Assembly: GCA_902602135.1 (NCBI GenBank)
Contig: CACKQA010000003.1
Location: 1 to 38,345 of the forward strand
DNA from: an uncultured Alphaproteobacteria bacterium
GTDB taxonomy: Bacteria > Pseudomonadota > Alphaproteobacteria > HIMB59 > GCA-002718135
DNA length: 38,345 bases
Direction: 5' to 3'
Under the pieces are notes generated by a model, which was not told the DNA's origin, did no database searches, and worked only from the letters and a program-made list of their open reading frames with translations. Shown here piece after piece: positions 6,971-11,638 of this stretch (positions are counted from its first letter, which is position 1; the number at the start of each line of letters is the position of its first letter). The translations under genes were made by a program, and so were the position numbers.

Positions 6971-7333
6971 TTACCACATTGAATGGATAATATCGGAACT
7001 GTTAATTTTTACTAAATTCTCACATTTACTTTCAAAATCACTAAAATCATCTCTAAAAGATGCGCCATTGTTTTGTGCTTGCTCAAAATGATTATCTATT
7101 CCTGCTTGACTTTCATAAAGCTCTGTTAAGATTAGAGACATATTGCCTGTTTTATTTCCATCTTTAAATTCAGGGCCTATAGACCAATTTAACATTAGGA
7201 GTGCTTTTTCACCTTCCTTTGTATGTGTTTCCTTCATCCATTTTGTATGATCTTCTGCAATTCTTTTTGCAATATCATTAAGTTCAGGTTTAAAAATCCA
7301 TAAATACTGAAGTTGTTTTTTATTTTGAAACAT
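6971..7333 (-). CDS. Hypothetical protein, possibly dimeric alpha-beta barrel (ABM-like)
   Basis: Strong AAGGAGG SD. HxxWMKETH and LTELYESxAGIDNH resemble ferredoxin-like barrel proteins (fold is inferred). Confidence 0.65.
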   Translation of the reverse strand: MFQNKKQLQYLWIFKPELNDIAKRIAEDHTKWMKETHTKEGEKALLMLNWSIGPEFKDGNKTGNMSLILTELYESQAGIDNHFEQAQNNGASFRDDFSDFESKCENLVKINSSDIIHSMW

Positions 7334-7388: not shown

Positions 7389-8228
7389 TTATTGTTGAGA
7401 ATTATTTTCCAATGTTTGTACATGAATATCTAGGTTTTCTATCAAAGAATCATTATTAATATTTCCATAAAAAACACCTTTAATAGGTGATGCGTAACTT
7501 GCATCAAGTCCACAAGAAACACGTACGTATCTTTCATCTGGACTGCACTTATTTGTAGGATCAAATCCCACCCAACCTAAGTCATTTATATAAAATTCTG
7601 CCCAGGCATGTGTAGATTGAAATTCTGAAGAATGGGAATTGTTATGCATATAACCATTTACATATCTAGCAGGTATTCCTAAAGTTTTTGCTGCGGCAAT
7701 CATAATATGTGCTTGATCCTGACAGACTCCCTTTTTCTGATTAAATGCCTCAATGGCTGTAGTTTGATTATTTGTCGTTAAAGGTTTGTATTCAATTTTA
7801 TCAGCTACTAAATTCATAAGATTATGAGATGTTTCTAGATTTTCATTTTCATTAAAACCATTTTTAGCTTCAATAGCTAGATTTTTTATATCCGCATTTG
7901 CTTTTGTTAAATTTGATTCTCTTAAGTAAACTAATGGATCTATTTTATCAGAAGTACTCTGGTAAATTCCTTTTGTATCAAATGTTTCAACTTTTCCAAG
8001 AACTGTAAATTGTATTTTTTTCACCTTGTTTGTATTTGTAAAACTTTGAATATTATTAGCCTCACCATCCTTATAAATTTTTGATTTTTTAGCTGAGTCG
8101 TTATGGACATTCCACTCTAAAATTTTAAGACCATTATATTCTGAAGGATGCAGTTTAGTAGTTTGAATTAATCCAGCAACTGGATTTTTATACTCATACT
8201 TAGTTGTGTGTTCGATGATTAGTTCCAT
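7389..8228 (-). CDS. Bacterial transglutaminase-like protein (Bact_transglu_N + transglutaminase core)
   Basis: N-terminal IEHTTKYEY; catalytic triad motifs GVCQDQAH, HAWAE and GFDPTN. Start moved to the ATG at 8228, just after the alpha-E stop. Confidence 0.9.
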   Translation of the reverse strand: MELIIEHTTKYEYKNPVAGLIQTTKLHPSEYNGLKILEWNVHNDSAKKSKIYKDGEANNIQSFTNTNKVKKIQFTVLGKVETFDTKGIYQSTSDKIDPLVYLRESNLTKANADIKNLAIEAKNGFNENENLETSHNLMNLVADKIEYKPLTTNNQTTAIEAFNQKKGVCQDQAHIMIAAAKTLGIPARYVNGYMHNNSHSSEFQSTHAWAEFYINDLGWVGFDPTNKCSPDERYVRVSCGLDASYASPIKGVFYGNINNDSLIENLDIHVQTLENNSQQ

Positions 8229-8229
8229 A

Positions 8230-9165
8230 TTAATTAAAAAACTCCTTATGTATTTCGTTATCAACACTAGATATTTTTCTAATAAATTGTGTTACAAATT
8301 GATGAAGTCCATATTCAACAATAGTTTCTATTTTTTCTTCCTGAATTTTAGTATTTAGATCTTTTAAATTATCATAAATTCTTCCAACCTTTGCTGGACT
8401 ACATGTTAGGTTAGTTAAATGCTTAACAATATTCTGAATACAAAAACTTAAAGATCTAGGGCAATTATTATTTAAAACTAAAAAGTCAGCAATTTTAGTT
8501 GCGGTAATATTACCATCGTATGCCCATCTAAAAGCTCTAAAAGAAGATAAAGAGCGAAGCAATATACTCCATTGCATATTATCGATATTACCACCTACAT
8601 ATTGAGGCTTAGGTAATAAAACAAAATACTTCACATCTAACAATCTGGCAGAATTATCAGCCCTCTCAATAAACAAACCAAGAAAAAGAAAATTATAACC
8701 ATCATTTCTAAGCAAAGAATTTAATGATCCTCTAAATAAGTTTACTTGTTCTATTGTCCACTCAGTCAGATCAGGTAAATCAGATTTTGTAAATTTTTTT
8801 TCTTTTAAATTTAGTATCTCTTGATAAGTTTTATTAATTGCTAACCAAGACTCAGGGGTAAAGGAAGTTCTAACTACTAATGCGTTATTTCGTGCATTAA
8901 GAATACAATTGTAAACAGATGAAGGATTACTTTCATCAAAAAATAAATAATCTTCCACATTTTTCTGTTCAATTGTATCATATTTATTTTTATATCCCTC
9001 AATTGCTCCAGCAGCAGATAAAACTGATTCCCATTCATTATTATAACCACTTGGATTTGGAAAAAGAGACATTCTATAACCAACATCCAAAAGCCTGGCT
9101 GTAGTTTCAGCTCTTTCCATATAACGACTGATCCAATATAGATATTCAGCAGTTCTACTTAACAT
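8230..9165 (-). CDS. Alpha-E domain protein (DUF403 type)
   Basis: MLSRTAEYLYWISRYMERAE, second ER motif FIERAD, and CPRSL. Confidence 0.92.
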   Translation of the reverse strand: MLSRTAEYLYWISRYMERAETTARLLDVGYRMSLFPNPSGYNNEWESVLSAAGAIEGYKNKYDTIEQKNVEDYLFFDESNPSSVYNCILNARNNALVVRTSFTPESWLAINKTYQEILNLKEKKFTKSDLPDLTEWTIEQVNLFRGSLNSLLRNDGYNFLFLGLFIERADNSARLLDVKYFVLLPKPQYVGGNIDNMQWSILLRSLSSFRAFRWAYDGNITATKIADFLVLNNNCPRSLSFCIQNIVKHLTNLTCSPAKVGRIYDNLKDLNTKIQEEKIETIVEYGLHQFVTQFIRKISSVDNEIHKEFFN

Positions 9166-9174
9166 TTTTATTAC

Positions 9175-10581
9175 TCATTCAGCCAAAACCCATGTGTCTT
9201 TCACACCGCCTCCTTGGCTAGAATTTACAACAAACGAACCTTCATTCATTGCAACTCTAGTTAAACCACCAGAACTTAATTGAGCCTGCTCTCCAATTAA
9301 ACAAAATGGACGTAAATCTACCCTTCTTCCCTCAACTTGATTTTTGATTAGTGTTGGTGAAAATGAAAGATCAAGTAAAGGTTGAGCTATATATCCTTTT
9401 GGATTTGTTGACAGTTTTGTTTTAAATTCATCTATAGAGGATTTAGAAGATTTTGGACCTATTAACATCCCATAACCTCCAGATCCATCAACCTCTTTTA
9501 CGACAAGTTCATTTATATTATCTAAAACATATTTTAATTCTTGTTCCTTTTCGCAATTCCATGTTTCAACATTATCTAAGATTGGTTGTTCACCTAAATA
9601 AAATTTTATCATCTCAGGCACATATATATAAATTGCTTTATCATCGGCTATACCTGCTCCAGGAGCTGAACAAATATTAACACCTCCGGTTCTATAAACA
9701 TCCATAATTCCTGGAATGCCAATTACAGATTGAGGATTAAAACAGAGAGGATCTAAAAAATCATCATCTATTCTTCTATAAACAACATCTACTCTCTTTG
9801 GGCCATCTACTGTTTTCATATAAAGGTATTTACCTTCGACAAATAGATCGGTTGATTCAACCATTTCAATACCCATTTGATCTGATAAAAAACTATGTTC
9901 GTAATAAGCACTATTCAATGGACCAGGTGTAAGTAATACGCATACAGGTTCTGGATTTTCGCATTTAATAGGAGCCAAGCTCATCAAAGTTTGTAAAAGT
10001 CTTGTAGGATAATCATCTATTGGCGTTACTCTATTGTTATGAAATAGATCAGGAAACATTCGCATCATTATTTCTCTATTTTCTAGCATGTAGGAAACAC
10101 CACTTGGCGTTCGACAATTATCTTCCAAAACAAAATACTCGTTTGGACCTGTTCTAACTAAATCAATACCAATTATAGGACTATAAATGTCTCTAGGAGG
10201 TGAAAAACCAAACATTGAAGGTTCAAAAGATTTTTTTTTGTAAATAATTTCTTTAGGAATTATATTGGCTTTTATTATTTCACCTTGATTATAAATATCA
10301 GCAAGAAACGCATTAAGTGCTTTAGCTCTTTGGATTACTCCTCTTTCTAGCCTTAACCATTCTGTATAAGTAAATATCCTTGGAATTAAATCAAACGGAA
10401 TAATTCTTTCTCTTGCAGTTTCGTTATTTGTAGAAAATGTAATTCCAATATTTCTAAAATGAGATTCAGCTTCAGCATTCTTTTCAAGAATAACTTTTGA
10501 AGTCATTTGATCCAACCAATCATTAATATTGTTATAATGTTTTCTTATAACTGACTCAGATTGATACATTTCATTAAACAT
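9175..10581 (-). CDS. Circularly permuted type 2 ATP-grasp protein (peptide/amide ligase)
   Basis: ERIIPFDLIPR, LEDNCRTPSGVSY, YRRIDDDFLDPL, DGSGGYG and VVNSSQGGGVKDTWV. GAGG SD precedes TTG(10584)/ATG(10581). Confidence 0.93.
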   Translation of the reverse strand: MFNEMYQSESVIRKHYNNINDWLDQMTSKVILEKNAEAESHFRNIGITFSTNNETARERIIPFDLIPRIFTYTEWLRLERGVIQRAKALNAFLADIYNQGEIIKANIIPKEIIYKKKSFEPSMFGFSPPRDIYSPIIGIDLVRTGPNEYFVLEDNCRTPSGVSYMLENREIMMRMFPDLFHNNRVTPIDDYPTRLLQTLMSLAPIKCENPEPVCVLLTPGPLNSAYYEHSFLSDQMGIEMVESTDLFVEGKYLYMKTVDGPKRVDVVYRRIDDDFLDPLCFNPQSVIGIPGIMDVYRTGGVNICSAPGAGIADDKAIYIYVPEMIKFYLGEQPILDNVETWNCEKEQELKYVLDNINELVVKEVDGSGGYGMLIGPKSSKSSIDEFKTKLSTNPKGYIAQPLLDLSFSPTLIKNQVEGRRVDLRPFCLIGEQAQLSSGGLTRVAMNEGSFVVNSSQGGGVKDTWVLAE

Positions 10582-10708
10582 CAATGAGTAAACCTCTTGA
10601 GATTTGAATAGAATAATTTTTTATTATCTAACTTTTTAACCATAGTTATAACAAACCTTTCATATCCGTTACAATTCATGCTTAGCTATGGAAATTAATT
10701 ATAAGATC

Positions 10709-10761
10709 CGCGTTCCTTCGGCTTTAGCTTACTTCCGATCTGTTAATACAGATTGAACGAT
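10709..10761 (-). ncRNA. Glutamine riboswitch aptamer (glnA RNA motif), gene-proximal copy
   Basis: Minus strand reads AUCGUUCA-AUCUGU(AUUA)ACAGAU-CGGAAGUA-AGC(UAAA)GCC-GAAGGAACGCG: P1 CGUUC/GAACG, P2 hairpin, conserved CGGAAGUA and GAAGGAACGC. Confidence 0.9.
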
Positions 10762-10774
10762 TTAATAACTTGCA

Positions 10775-10828
10775 TGCGTTCCTTCAACTTTCGTTTACTT
10801 CCGTTTTGAATTATTCAAAATGAACGAT
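10775..10828 (-). ncRNA. Glutamine riboswitch aptamer (glnA RNA motif), gene-distal copy
   Basis: Minus strand reads AUCGUUCA-UUUUGAA(UAA)UUCAAAA-CGGAAGUA-AAC(GAAA)GUU-GAAGGAACGCA: same core with different but fully paired P2 and P3. Confidence 0.9.
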
Positions 10829-10930
10829 GAATTTTTAATAATAAAATTTATTTATTTTTAAAAATGAATTTCATACTTATTTGATATGCGTTTTTTGCAT
10901 ATACAAAATAATATTGAATTACTTACGCTT

Positions 10931-11638
10931 TTAATAGTCTTTTATCGATCTAAGAAAACAAATATAAATAAAATAACCCGTACAAATTAGCCATATTAAA
11001 AGAACAATTGTATCATTTATAATTAAGTTTATTTCTGATTTTGTTACTAATCGTAGTGTTGTTGCTGCCCAAACAACAGTAAAAAAAATCGTTAAATTTC
11101 TAAATGATTTTACTCTTAGTGGATGAACAAACTTCCATGGAACGAATGTCAATACTGATAGAACAATTATCACAATTAAGTTTATCCATTCATTTGTATT
11201 TAATATAAAGAAATATAAAACCACAACATTCCAGACTGCAGGAAAACCTTGGAAATAATAATCATCCGTTTTCATATTCACATTGATAAAAGTGTACAAA
11301 GAAACTCCAAATATAAGAGCAGGCATAATCATTTCAAAACCTGATGGTACCATCTGAAACCAGTAAATCATTAAAGCTGGGTTAATAACGTAATTCAGAT
11401 AATCAATAATGGAATCTAAAATAATTCCATCTAGATTTGGCGCCTTTTCCTCAACACCAACCTTCCTGGCTAAAGTTCCATCAACTCCATCTACAAGTAA
11501 GGCCATACCAAGCCATAAAAAACTACCTACTTGATCATTATTTAATATTGATATTAAGGCAAGAAAACCAAGTATAGCTCCAGAACCAGTGAAGGCATGC
11601 ACACCCCATGCGGATATTTGATCTTTATCAACTTTCAT
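10931..11638 (-). CDS. pcs: Phosphatidylcholine synthase (CDP-alcohol phosphatidyltransferase)
   Basis: VHAFTGSG, DGVDGTLAR...DGIILDSIIDYLNY, KTDDYYFQGFPAVWN and FVHPLRV. Confidence 0.85.
   Translation of the reverse strand: MKVDKDQISAWGVHAFTGSGAILGFLALISILNNDQVGSFLWLGMALLVDGVDGTLARKVGVEEKAPNLDGIILDSIIDYLNYVINPALMIYWFQMVPSGFEMIMPALIFGVSLYTFINVNMKTDDYYFQGFPAVWNVVVLYFFILNTNEWINLIVIIVLSVLTFVPWKFVHPLRVKSFRNLTIFFTVVWAATTLRLVTKSEINLIINDTIVLLIWLICTGYFIYICFLRSIKDY

Follow-up and report, generated by a model that had tools for sequence, protein, structure and literature searches.

Tandem glutamine-riboswitch aptamers in the leader of an ATP-grasp, Alpha-E and transglutaminase-like operon of streamlined marine Alphaproteobacteria

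Our analysis of a 38,345-nt stretch of DNA from a streamlined marine alphaproteobacterium (hereafter the window) identifies two glutamine-riboswitch aptamers, arranged in tandem, in the leader of an operon that encodes a circularly permuted ATP-grasp protein, an Alpha-E protein, and a transglutaminase-like protein. We consider it likely that this operon is switched off at high glutamine and translated at low glutamine, that is, under nitrogen shortage, with the ligand as well as the direction and level of control all being inferred. The same device is proposed to control glnA and two amt genes in the window's genome. This regulon places the enzymes in the low-nitrogen response, but their chemistry is not established, and the earlier suggestion that Alpha-E is glutamylated and that an amide transfer then yields glutamine finds no support in our data.

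A cmscan search of the whole window at gathering thresholds returns exactly two Rfam matches, both to RF01739 (Glutamine) on the minus strand and both spanning model positions 1-53 of 53. Aptamer 1 (10773-10828) scores 66.0 bits (E 1.3e-12) and aptamer 2 (10707-10761) scores 60.6 bits (E 4e-11), against a cut-off of 35 bits. The original prediction, that these are glnA-type glutamine aptamers in tandem and that the covariance model would give two minus-strand matches, is thus borne out, and the helices are kept in relatives; the spacing between the copies, given earlier as 13 nt, is 11 nt between the RF01739 matches. The blocks said to be common to both copies, ATCGTTCA, CGGAAGTA, and GAAGGAACGC, are present, and the variable stems are indeed unlike yet paired, with the 5-bp stem being UUUUG/CAAAA in one copy and AUCUG/CAGAU in the other. 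In copy 2, one pair of the 3-bp stem is non-standard. Among the six aptamers of the genome, the 24 invariant columns correspond to the conserved junction blocks AUCGUUCA, CGGAAGUA, and GAAGGAACGC.

Covariation in relatives supports the helices of aptamer 1. We compared 50 aptamers from 25 related loci, which reduce to 33 distinct rows. In these rows, 98.6% of the helix cells pair, compared to 30-48% when the partners are slid by 1-3 columns. Both-sided changes occur in 5 of the 13 base pairs, and P1 never varies; by our criterion, the three RF01739 helices (P1, the 5-bp stem, and the 3-bp stem) are kept by compensatory change. Judged by sequence, both window aptamers are canonical RF01739 members, and glutamine binding itself is inferred.

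The three genes downstream lie on the same minus strand. The first encodes the 468-aa circularly permuted ATP-grasp protein (9175-10581; Pfam CP_ATPgrasp_2, E 3e-153, and CP_ATPgrasp_1), whose closest solved structure is 3n6x, a 'putative glutathionylspermidine synthase' (E 1.8e-174). Its stop is separated by 9 nt from the start of the gene for the 311-aa Alpha-E protein (8230-9165; Pfam Alpha-E, E 2.4e-86), for which a sequence search found no relative of solved structure. The transglutaminase-like protein (7389-8228; Pfam Transglut_core, E 1.3e-24, and Bact_transglu_N, E 1e-11) matches PDB 3isr, a 'putative cysteine protease' (E 7.6e-14), and has a Cys, a His, and an Asp within the matched core region that may be the catalytic residues, their motif positions being assigned without a reference alignment. 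Its open frame reaches 8267; the start is most likely the predicted ATG at 8228, 1 nt past the Alpha-E stop, and the corresponding ORF of a relative begins at the same MEL residues. Since the three neighbouring genes share a strand and each of the three Pfam families scores above its cut-off, the operon qualifies as a CP-ATP-grasp/Alpha-E/transglutaminase-like triad. The ATP-grasp gene starts with the ATG at 10581, which lies 125 nt from the end of aptamer 2 and 247 nt from the beginning of aptamer 1, in keeping with the roughly 130-250 nt given earlier for this packed operon.

The triad, which is the Anbu operon minus Anbu, is widespread in bacteria, and solved structures exist, but we know of no function for it. 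We take it to be the peptide ligation-modification system of Iyer et al. In contrast to the Anbu operon, no Anbu (proteasome beta-like) gene lies beside the window operon, as no proteasome-family match was found among the six neighbouring ORFs scanned with Pfam; for the three ORFs downstream of the operon, no Pfam family was found.

The association of aptamers and operon is strictly conserved. The tandem pair is found at 25/25 loci with at least 86% ATP-grasp identity. In the window's genus, only 58 of 105 genomes carry the ATP-grasp gene; 54 of these copies match a strict adjacency pattern, three are cut at contig ends, and one (G029) has the tandem pair according to Rfam. The tandem pair precedes the operon in all 55 evaluable genus genomes. 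Surveying the regions upstream of orthologous operons, as had been suggested, therefore finds the aptamers adjoining the operon in every evaluable copy of the genus, and the claim that they control the three-gene module gains support from this strict adjacency at the 25 close loci, in the 55 genus genomes, and in 28/28 genomes of a second order described below. The regulon in the genus is small. The window's own genome has six aptamers, which form three tandem pairs ahead of the ATP-grasp operon, glnA, and amt, and better-assembled genus genomes have four pairs, ahead of glnA, amt1, amt2, and the ATP-grasp operon. Besides the operon, glnA and the two amt genes are the only riboswitch targets in the genus.

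Two contigs from RNA libraries cover parts of the leader. One of 573 nt covers 10190-10759 and so links aptamer 2 to the initial 390 nt of the ATP-grasp gene, and a second covers 10675-10853. Contigs of this kind cannot prove that one transcript spans the region or show where it starts, and RNA libraries may contain DNA.

The leader, read on the minus strand, has a fixed layout: aptamer 1, a linker, aptamer 2, and a spacer are followed by a segment that complements the linker, by a hairpin whose loop contains a Shine-Dalgarno (SD) sequence, and by a short leader ORF ending at the ATP-grasp start. The inter-aptamer linker (10765-10776, CAUGC-AA-GUUAU) is the 5′ strand of a predicted clamp helix, P0, and is complementary to the 3′ strand at 10677-10689 (AUAGC-UAA-GCAUG). 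Among 37 distinct tandem leaders, 35 allow both 5-bp segments of P0 to pair, and the other two pair only in a shifted register. In the RNAalifold consensus the outer segment is paired in 37/37, with four one-sided changes, and no compensatory changes in P0 occur among these 37 leaders. ViennaRNA predicts P0 in relatives' leaders, and its 3′ strand shows no variation in any ATP-grasp or amt leader, whereas glnA leaders have AUAAC-UAGA-GCAUG. Just before this strand is a UUUCC run complementary to GGAAGU in the aptamer core, and amt leaders, when folded without constraints, show the UUUCC:GGAAGU pairing.

Past P0, the hairpin at 10648-10672 holds the leader ORF's SD, GAAAGG (10656-10661), in its loop. 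Three diverged leader groups all retain its stem, with inner pairs varying among G.U, A-U, and G-C, and GAAAGG or a near variant is present in 26/26 distinct platforms. The leader ORF itself (10581-10643, 20 codons) ends in a TGA that shares bases with the ATP-grasp ATG (TGATG). Every one of the 26 platforms likewise has an ORF of 16-25 codons that starts 6-13 nt past the SD and stops from -9 to +5 of the main ATG. The chance of such an ORF is 5-9% per version, and the encoded peptides are not alignable between groups. An SD-like motif before the main ATG is missing in 12 of the 26.

We propose the following mechanism from these elements. Glutamine binding would close the P1 helices of both aptamers, and these, together with P0, which joins the linker to the segment past aptamer 2, would fold the leader into a compact state in which the ribosome-binding site of the leader ORF is not used. 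Translation of the ATP-grasp gene would be coupled to that of the leader ORF via termination-reinitiation. Without glutamine, the UUUCC run would pair with the core GGAAGU, the leader would open, and translation would begin. A caveat is that thermodynamic folding reveals no clear fold switch in the window leader: its SD hairpin is predicted whether or not P1 is enforced, and the z-score of the fold does not go beyond -1.56.

Our inference on the direction of the switch instead rests mainly on a second alphaproteobacterial order, in which a single aptamer, not a tandem pair, precedes an operon of the same three Pfam families. Of 42 genomes, 28 have both RF01739 and the ATP-grasp gene, the remaining 14 have neither, and the gap between aptamer and ATP-grasp gene is 0-46 nt in all 28. 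The platforms are 3-50 nt long and contain the SD. In two leaders the start codon (ATG) lies only 3 nt past the P1 closing helix, so that the aptamer's own GAAGGA serves as the ribosome-binding site, and most of the others have an anti-SD/SD hairpin. Because P1 closure would hide the GAAGGA in the former, and the anti-SD/SD hairpin forms once the aptamer is folded in the latter, glutamine is predicted to turn translation off. Folding calculations point the same way, but the shift is modest: with P1 enforced, the ribosome-binding site becomes less open in 22/26 distinct leaders (mean 0.47 to 0.36; in leader L105, the unpaired probability of the SD falls from 0.78 to 0.15), and the other four shift the opposite way. 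The original prediction that the switch is probably OFF is supported by inference only, namely by these platforms, by the leader that the operon has in common with glnA and amt, and by the NtrC-dependent cluster of Burkholderia cenocepacia discussed below.

The aptamers of the two orders probably became linked to the operon separately. In the ATP-grasp tree the window clade groups with riboswitch-less Pelagibacterales (support 100/99) and not with the second lineage, and the window protein is 61% identical to the second lineage versus 73-77% to Pelagibacterales. Because the two ATP-grasp clades are not sisters, we infer that the riboswitch-operon link arose twice. Aptamer carriers are 77 of 79 sampled genomes of one family, in a streamlined marine alphaproteobacterial order, and the 28/42 in the second order; among 150 other alphaproteobacterial families sampled, the aptamer is present in just one.

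The aptamers could instead be ON switches, as in the cyanobacterial gifB leader, with the operon expressed at high glutamine so as, for instance, to put excess nitrogen into storage or to get rid of it. ATP-grasp ligases are able to build nitrogen-rich polymers, and the window's own leader lacks a decisive fold. Moreover, the gifB riboswitch, the only glutamine riboswitch tested in vivo (PMC6212724), turns translation on when it binds its ligand. Still, we regard an ON switch as quite unlikely, because the same tandem module stands ahead of glnA and two amt genes, homologous clusters are induced through NtrC under nitrogen limitation, and the second-lineage leaders place the SD within the P1 3′ strand in two cases and in an anti-SD/SD hairpin beside a folded aptamer in most others.

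Glutamine might also turn the operon off mainly at the level of the transcript, by Rho-dependent or intrinsic termination or RNA decay, and not by blocking the ribosome-binding site. In the genus and in L099, the P0 3′ strand of glnA leaders is followed by hairpins with a U-run, and an untranslated leader ORF would expose the RNA to Rho. A search of the ATP-grasp leader found no terminator-like site, however, and the SD-in-loop hairpin, the leader ORF abutting the main start, and the missing SD before so many main ATGs all point to translation, as do the short, SD-containing platforms of the second lineage; we therefore think transcript-level control unlikely. Hardly credible, in our judgment, is the idea that the aptamers lie outside the operon mRNA, in a separate small RNA or serving leader-peptide control only, with the operon having its own promoter. 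Promoter-like hexamers are common in this AT-rich DNA, with 27 found, which is fewer than the 33.6 expected from shuffles, and while the RNA contigs are no proof of a single transcript, one of them does bridge aptamer 2 and the ATP-grasp gene. The unbroken adjacency in both orders, the perfect agreement of presence and absence in the second, and the start codon 3 nt from the aptamer in two leaders also speak against a separate RNA.

The glycine riboswitch is a tandem-aptamer riboswitch with two aptamers for one ligand in one leader. The window leader resembles it in this respect, but only window-type leaders have the predicted helix around aptamer 2 that borders on P1 of aptamer 1. A steeper response is the proposed benefit, noted for glnA RNAs in PMC2864571; the sharpened response put forward earlier for the window's pair would follow by analogy only. 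A closely related known leader is that of Synechocystis gifB (type 1, glnA motif, RF01739), which has the same aptamer, blocks, and helices, also in a 5′ leader on the gene's strand. The two differ in host (a streamlined marine alphaproteobacterium versus a cyanobacterium), in target (the triad operon versus the glutamine synthetase inactivating factor), in architecture, as the window leader has two aptamers, a predicted clamp helix, and a leader ORF, and in sign, predicted OFF versus ON (PMC6212724).

PMC6212724 places glutamine riboswitches only in cyanobacteria or unassigned marine sequences, and gives as unknown their effect on glnA-type targets as well as the taxonomic affiliation and effect of the metagenomic tandem glnA RNAs. 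The main text of PMC2864571 names PII, glutamine synthetase, glutamate synthase, ammonium transporters, and PMT1479 as targets, and the triad operon is absent from it. The marine metagenomic RNAs described there, ahead of glnA, amt, PII, and GOGAT, are likewise tandem, and the window genome uses the module before glnA and amt; they may well come from the window's lineage. Carriers outside cyanobacteria can now be assigned to one marine alphaproteobacterial family and a second order. We found no literature joining a glutamine riboswitch with the triad operon, which agrees with the earlier view that this pairing is undescribed, although supplements and Ames and Breaker (2011), possible sources of gene-context lists, were not covered.

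Links between the triad and nitrogen limitation have been reported. In B. cenocepacia H111, few genes depend on sigma54/NtrC under nitrogen limitation as strongly as those of the homologous cluster I35_5080-83 (PMC5491218), Anbu operon genes are reported to be up in nitrogen-limited P. putida (PMC5666114, PMC6376114), and across marine metagenomes the triad's domains vary together with domains for urea use (PMC3597751). The B. cenocepacia cluster and the Anbu operon of pseudomonads contain the families found here, DUF404/DUF407 (now CP_ATPgrasp), DUF403 (now Alpha-E), and a transglutaminase-like protein. There the signal passes through the NtrC and sigma54 proteins, whereas in the window it would be read directly by RNA.

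Taken together, these observations tie a triad of unknown function to the cell's nitrogen-shortage response, with glutamine sensing inferred. Because a riboswitch names the controlling metabolite, a vague link to nitrogen limitation becomes direct and testable. We offer only tentatively, and as a doubtful extension, the larger model that the triad is a dedicated glutamine-homeostasis device that is the main, and usually the only, set under a glutamine riboswitch in one whole order, that this link arose at least twice, and that the leaders are the first OFF-type glutamine riboswitches. If so, the triad's substrate or product would be tied directly to the glutamine pool, possibly in an ATP-dependent ligase/transamidase cycle by which amide nitrogen of proteins, peptides, or gamma-glutamyl compounds would be released or taken up whenever glutamine synthetase alone falls short. 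OFF-type control would then use three platforms, one with the SD located within P1, one with an anti-SD hairpin, and one with tandem aptamers, a clamp helix, and a coupled leader ORF. The regulon is tiny, comprising glnA, amt, and the triad operon in one lineage and almost only the triad operon in the other, and the two leaders with a start codon 3 nt past P1 represent a minimal natural construct for determining the sign of a glutamine riboswitch.

A 15-nt palindrome, ATGCA-N5-YGCAT (10886-10900, minus strand), is found some 60 nt upstream of aptamer 1 and is a candidate transcription-factor site, judged from sequence alone. The pattern has four sites in the 0.96-Mb genome compared to none for a reversed-pattern control; the other three lie before amt1, before a gene pair for a solute-binding protein and a creatininase, and inside moaA. 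It is conserved in relatives' ATP-grasp and amt1 leaders, which are also alike in linker, spacer type, and P0 3′ strand.

A scan of the whole window at curated thresholds returns only two Rfam matches, both to the glutamine aptamer family RF01739 and both on the minus strand: aptamer 1 at 10773-10828 (66.0 bits) and, 11 nt further on, aptamer 2 at 10707-10761 (60.6 bits). Each covers the full model, against a cut-off of 35 bits, as had been expected of this covariance-model check. On the same strand, downstream, lie three genes with unambiguous Pfam matches, encoding a circularly permuted ATP-grasp protein (9175-10581), an Alpha-E protein (8230-9165), and a protein with a transglutaminase-like core plus bacterial N-terminal region (7389-8267, probable ATG at 8228); they are separated by 9 nt and 1 nt. 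The original prediction, that tandem glutamine riboswitches control this operon, thus described the aptamers and genes correctly in substance; the core of its interpretation holds, and the finding is real. Lowering the Rfam threshold yielded no further credible element, only a sub-threshold Glutamine-II match over aptamer 2 (20.5 versus 33 bits) and a chance snoRNA. Across 50 aptamers from 25 related loci (33 distinct), standard pairs fill 98.6% of base-pair cells, compared to 30-48% when the partners are slid, and 5 of the 13 base pairs show changes on both sides among the distinct sequences.

Parts of the stretch turn up in four metatranscriptome runs, in the form of assembled contigs only. 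One contig of 573 nt (depth 24.5, 20 differences) spans 10190-10759; it therefore runs from aptamer 2 through the platform and the leader ORF to 390 nt into the ATP-grasp gene. A second, at 10675-10853, includes both aptamers and 25 nt of upstream sequence. These contigs fit a single transcript for aptamers and operon, but cannot prove one. Positions 10854-10982 are not covered by any contig in the four runs, a gap that is uninformative on the start site.

Surveying the regions upstream of orthologous operons supports the pairing. Among 80 relatives' loci, the tandem pair is directly upstream in all 25 with at least 86% ATP-grasp identity; it is absent from 17 Pelagibacteraceae/Pelagibacterales loci at 73-77% identity, for which a full Rfam scan was also empty, and from the remaining 38, mostly Rhodobacterales. 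Within the genus, 58 of 105 genomes hold the ATP-grasp gene, and 54 of them match a strict pattern linking aptamer 2's 3' strand with the first codons of the gene. Of the remaining four, three have the gene truncated at a contig end and the fourth has the pair according to Rfam, which gives 55/55 evaluable operon copies with the pair. The operon itself is accessory in the genus: of 6 genomes with a completeness of 90% or more, 3 have it. Tandem aptamers also precede glnA or amt in five genomes (84-93% complete) of other genera in the family, and the query used did not find the operon in these. By family within the order, aptamers are carried by 77 of 79 sampled genomes in one family and 0 of 71 in the other.

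When one genome was sampled from each of 150 other alphaproteobacterial families, the aptamer was present in only one (G193), where a single copy lies 38 nt upstream of an ATP-grasp/Alpha-E/transglutaminase-like operon. We scanned 42 genomes from 14 genera of this second order. Aptamer and ATP-grasp gene co-occur in the same 28 genomes and neither is in the other 14; the distance between them is 0-46 nt in 28/28, counting G355, a partial match at a contig end that has internal stops. Only two genomes of this order have extra aptamers, in one case ahead of an outer-membrane-like gene and an amt gene; the scan also gave three 50-bit matches in G344.

The ATP-grasp proteins of the window and the second lineage are 61% identical, and in the ATP-grasp tree the Pelagibacterales, which lack the riboswitch, join the window's clade (support 100/99), with the second lineage placed apart from both. 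On these two sequence-based grounds, the riboswitch-operon pairing was most likely assembled twice; or else it was lost in Pelagibacterales. A caveat to this analysis is that the tree was built from 15 hand-picked rows and that a long branch leads to the second lineage. The sampling for riboswitch plus operon also covered only two orders and the 150 families.

The platforms of the second lineage are short. In two leaders, the ATG falls 3 nt after the 3' strand of P1, the closing helix of the aptamer, and the aptamer's own GAAGGA is 6 nt before the ATG and must act as the Shine-Dalgarno (SD) sequence. Crystal-structure work on the glutamine aptamer reportedly indicates that glutamine binding favours P1 closure, which in these two leaders would hide the SD. 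In most other leaders, a pyrimidine run (UCUCUUUC-like) is able to pair with either the aptamer core GGAAGU or the SD (GAAAGAG-like). In predicted folds of locus L105, the unpaired probability of the SD drops from 0.78 to 0.15 when P1 is enforced. Among the 26 distinct leaders of the 28, the ribosome-binding site is less open under enforced P1 in 22, with the mean going from 0.47 to 0.36. From these platforms of the second lineage, we predict a translational OFF switch that responds to glutamine.

The leader in the window is longer. The linker between its two aptamers (CAUGC-AA-GUUAU) has a complement in the segment that follows aptamer 2 (AUAGC-UAA-GCAUG). Pairing of the two would form a helix, P0, surrounding aptamer 2 and adjoining P1 of aptamer 1. 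Of 37 distinct tandem leaders, which represent all four gene types and seven genera, 35 allow both 5-bp halves to pair, and variation falls within the internal loop. (Identical rows were collapsed and A or C was required before GCATGA, excluding G-bearing leaders such as that of L020.) ViennaRNA and RNAalifold both find P0 unprompted. The changes in P0 are one-sided only, so covariation speaks neither for nor against it. The P0 3' strand is followed by a hairpin with a covarying stem and GAAAGG in its loop. All 26 distinct platforms have a leader ORF of 16-25 codons whose stop lies at -9 to +5 of the ATP-grasp ATG, for which shuffling gives a chance of 5-9% per version. The leader peptides are completely different between leader groups, and in 12 of the 26 the main ATG lacks its own SD. 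We therefore propose that the aptamers would control whether the leader ORF is translated, with translation of the ATP-grasp gene coupled to it.

The switch itself does not show in the window's own folds, in which the same downstream hairpin forms with or without enforced P1, and the fold of the 226-nt leader has a z of -1.56. For the region after aptamer 2 alone, RNAalifold gives only a 5-bp local hairpin inside the P0 3' strand. The OFF step in the window's leader is instead inferred from the second lineage and from the leader shared with glnA and amt. No terminator-like site was found in the ATP-grasp leader, and promoter-like sites are not enriched in it (27 found versus 33.6 expected). 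Several other pairings were rejected as not conserved: CCAUAG with CUAUGG of the leader ORF is limited to a single leader group, the linker with the first ATP-grasp codons (the minimum-free-energy structure of the 226-nt fold) to two groups, and neither GGAUCU with the 3' strand of the aptamer-2 stem nor a third P0 segment (AAAU/AUUU) held.

The genome containing the window (0.96 Mb in 75 contigs, 59% complete) has six RF01739 matches, which form three tandem pairs. Besides that of the operon, one precedes glutamine synthetase, just after a PII gene, and one precedes an ammonium transporter. In better-assembled genomes of the genus there are four pairs, ahead of glnA, amt1, the ATP-grasp operon, and amt2, the last lying 2 kb downstream of amt1. 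Leaders of amt1 and of the ATP-grasp operon have in common an upstream 15-nt palindrome, the inter-aptamer linker, the spacer after aptamer 2, and then a 13-nt segment; by sequence, they look like copies of each other. A contig from one RNA-library run (X2), matching the window at about 10667-10698, continues into the amt1 leader's own hairpin sequence, so the amt1 copy of the shared module is also in the RNA libraries. In loci L088, L091, and L094, the order is amt1, a 125-142-aa ORF without a Pfam family, and amt2, with a separate tandem pair for each amt; the amt2 leaders have a 3-codon mini-ORF within a hairpin with an SD-like loop. In another genus of the family, a single aptamer (L100; G070 C6:5565-5624) lies ahead of a different Amt-family gene, and its P1 3' strand could alternatively pair with a UUCCUU run just downstream, a classic competing hairpin. 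In the glnA leaders (L002 1380-1500; L087, L090, L093; L099), a GC-rich or long hairpin and then a U-run come next to the segment downstream of aptamer 2, on its 3' side. Because of this arrangement, glnA may be controlled by transcription attenuation, whereas the ATP-grasp and amt leaders look translational.

A PII-type gene (L002 1664-1900, minus strand) ends about 45 nt ahead of the first aptamer of the glnA leader, and the lineage therefore possesses PII. We tentatively take the window's order to belong to the AEGEAN-169/HIMB59 clade, an assignment helped by a PII note for a SAR11-like lineage. PII genes have been noted in that divergent SAR11-like lineage, whereas Pelagibacter as described in the same paper has none (PMC3870248). 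A paper on the AEGEAN-169/HIMB59 clade mentions neither riboswitch nor glutamine (PMC10308909).

The aptamers themselves belong to a known class and are ordinary examples of it; the novelty lies in their target, their carriers, the predicted sign, and the three platform designs. The accessible text of PMC2864571 notes tandem copies of glnA RNA and lists as targets PII, glutamine synthetase, glutamate synthase, ammonium transporters, and PMT1479. PMC6212724, in the part available, describes the gifB leader as an ON switch, states that glutamine riboswitches are confined to cyanobacteria or marine metagenomes, and gives the taxon and effect of the glnA-associated ones as unknown. Later papers place the aptamer in marine phages and SAR86. 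We found no publication joining a glutamine riboswitch or glnA RNA with a transglutaminase or ATP-grasp cluster, and none naming both a riboswitch of any kind and DUF403/404/407 or COG2307/2308; because most subscription papers and all supplements, including the gene lists of PMC2864571, lay outside the search, an earlier mention cannot be excluded.

The pairing offers direct access to an operon whose function is unknown, which matters to riboswitch and nitrogen-metabolism specialists. In Burkholderia cenocepacia H111, the homologous cluster I35_5080-83 (DUF404/DUF407, DUF403, and two transglutaminase-like proteins) is among the sigma54/NtrC targets under nitrogen limitation, with table values of -6.0 to -9.4 in the ntrC mutant, according to the accessible portion of PMC5491218. 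Induction in nitrogen-limited Pseudomonas putida is cited in the available text of two Anbu papers (PMC5666114, PMC6376114), and these domains co-vary with urea-use domains in marine metagenomes, as far as the accessible text of PMC3597751 goes. Whereas the Burkholderia cluster relies on an NtrC/sigma54 protein cascade, a glutamine OFF switch would give the same logic without one. The enzymology proposed for the three proteins, glutamylation of Alpha-E followed by amide transfer, is speculation. The closest solved structures, 3n6x and 3isr, are structural genomics entries with no assigned function, and Alpha-E has no solved structure among its sequence relatives. A 120-aa ORF without a Pfam family above threshold (6971-7333, minus strand) follows the transglutaminase-like gene after 55 nt and has a strong SD (AAAGGAGG).

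The palindrome upstream of the aptamers, ATGCA-N5-YGCAT (10886-10900, minus strand), has only four sites in a pattern search of the genome and none in the control. Three precede genes related to nitrogen, namely the ATP-grasp operon, amt1, and a gene pair for a solute-binding protein and then creatininase, and moaA contains the fourth. (The sites outside the window are C25:1196-1210, C37:7708-7722, and C10:14891-14905 of genome G000.) The palindrome looks like a site where a nitrogen-responsive regulator would act in addition to the riboswitch. On our reading it does not fit a sigma54 promoter, having no GG and the wrong spacing. The riboswitch-less Pelagibacteraceae copies (L031-L048 except L046) have a conserved GTCAATTTGGCA followed by GCAT about 45-75 nt before the ATP-grasp start. 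This motif, present in most of the 14 loci shown, inverted in L043 and altered in L031, may be a regulatory site of the Pelagibacteraceae operons' own.
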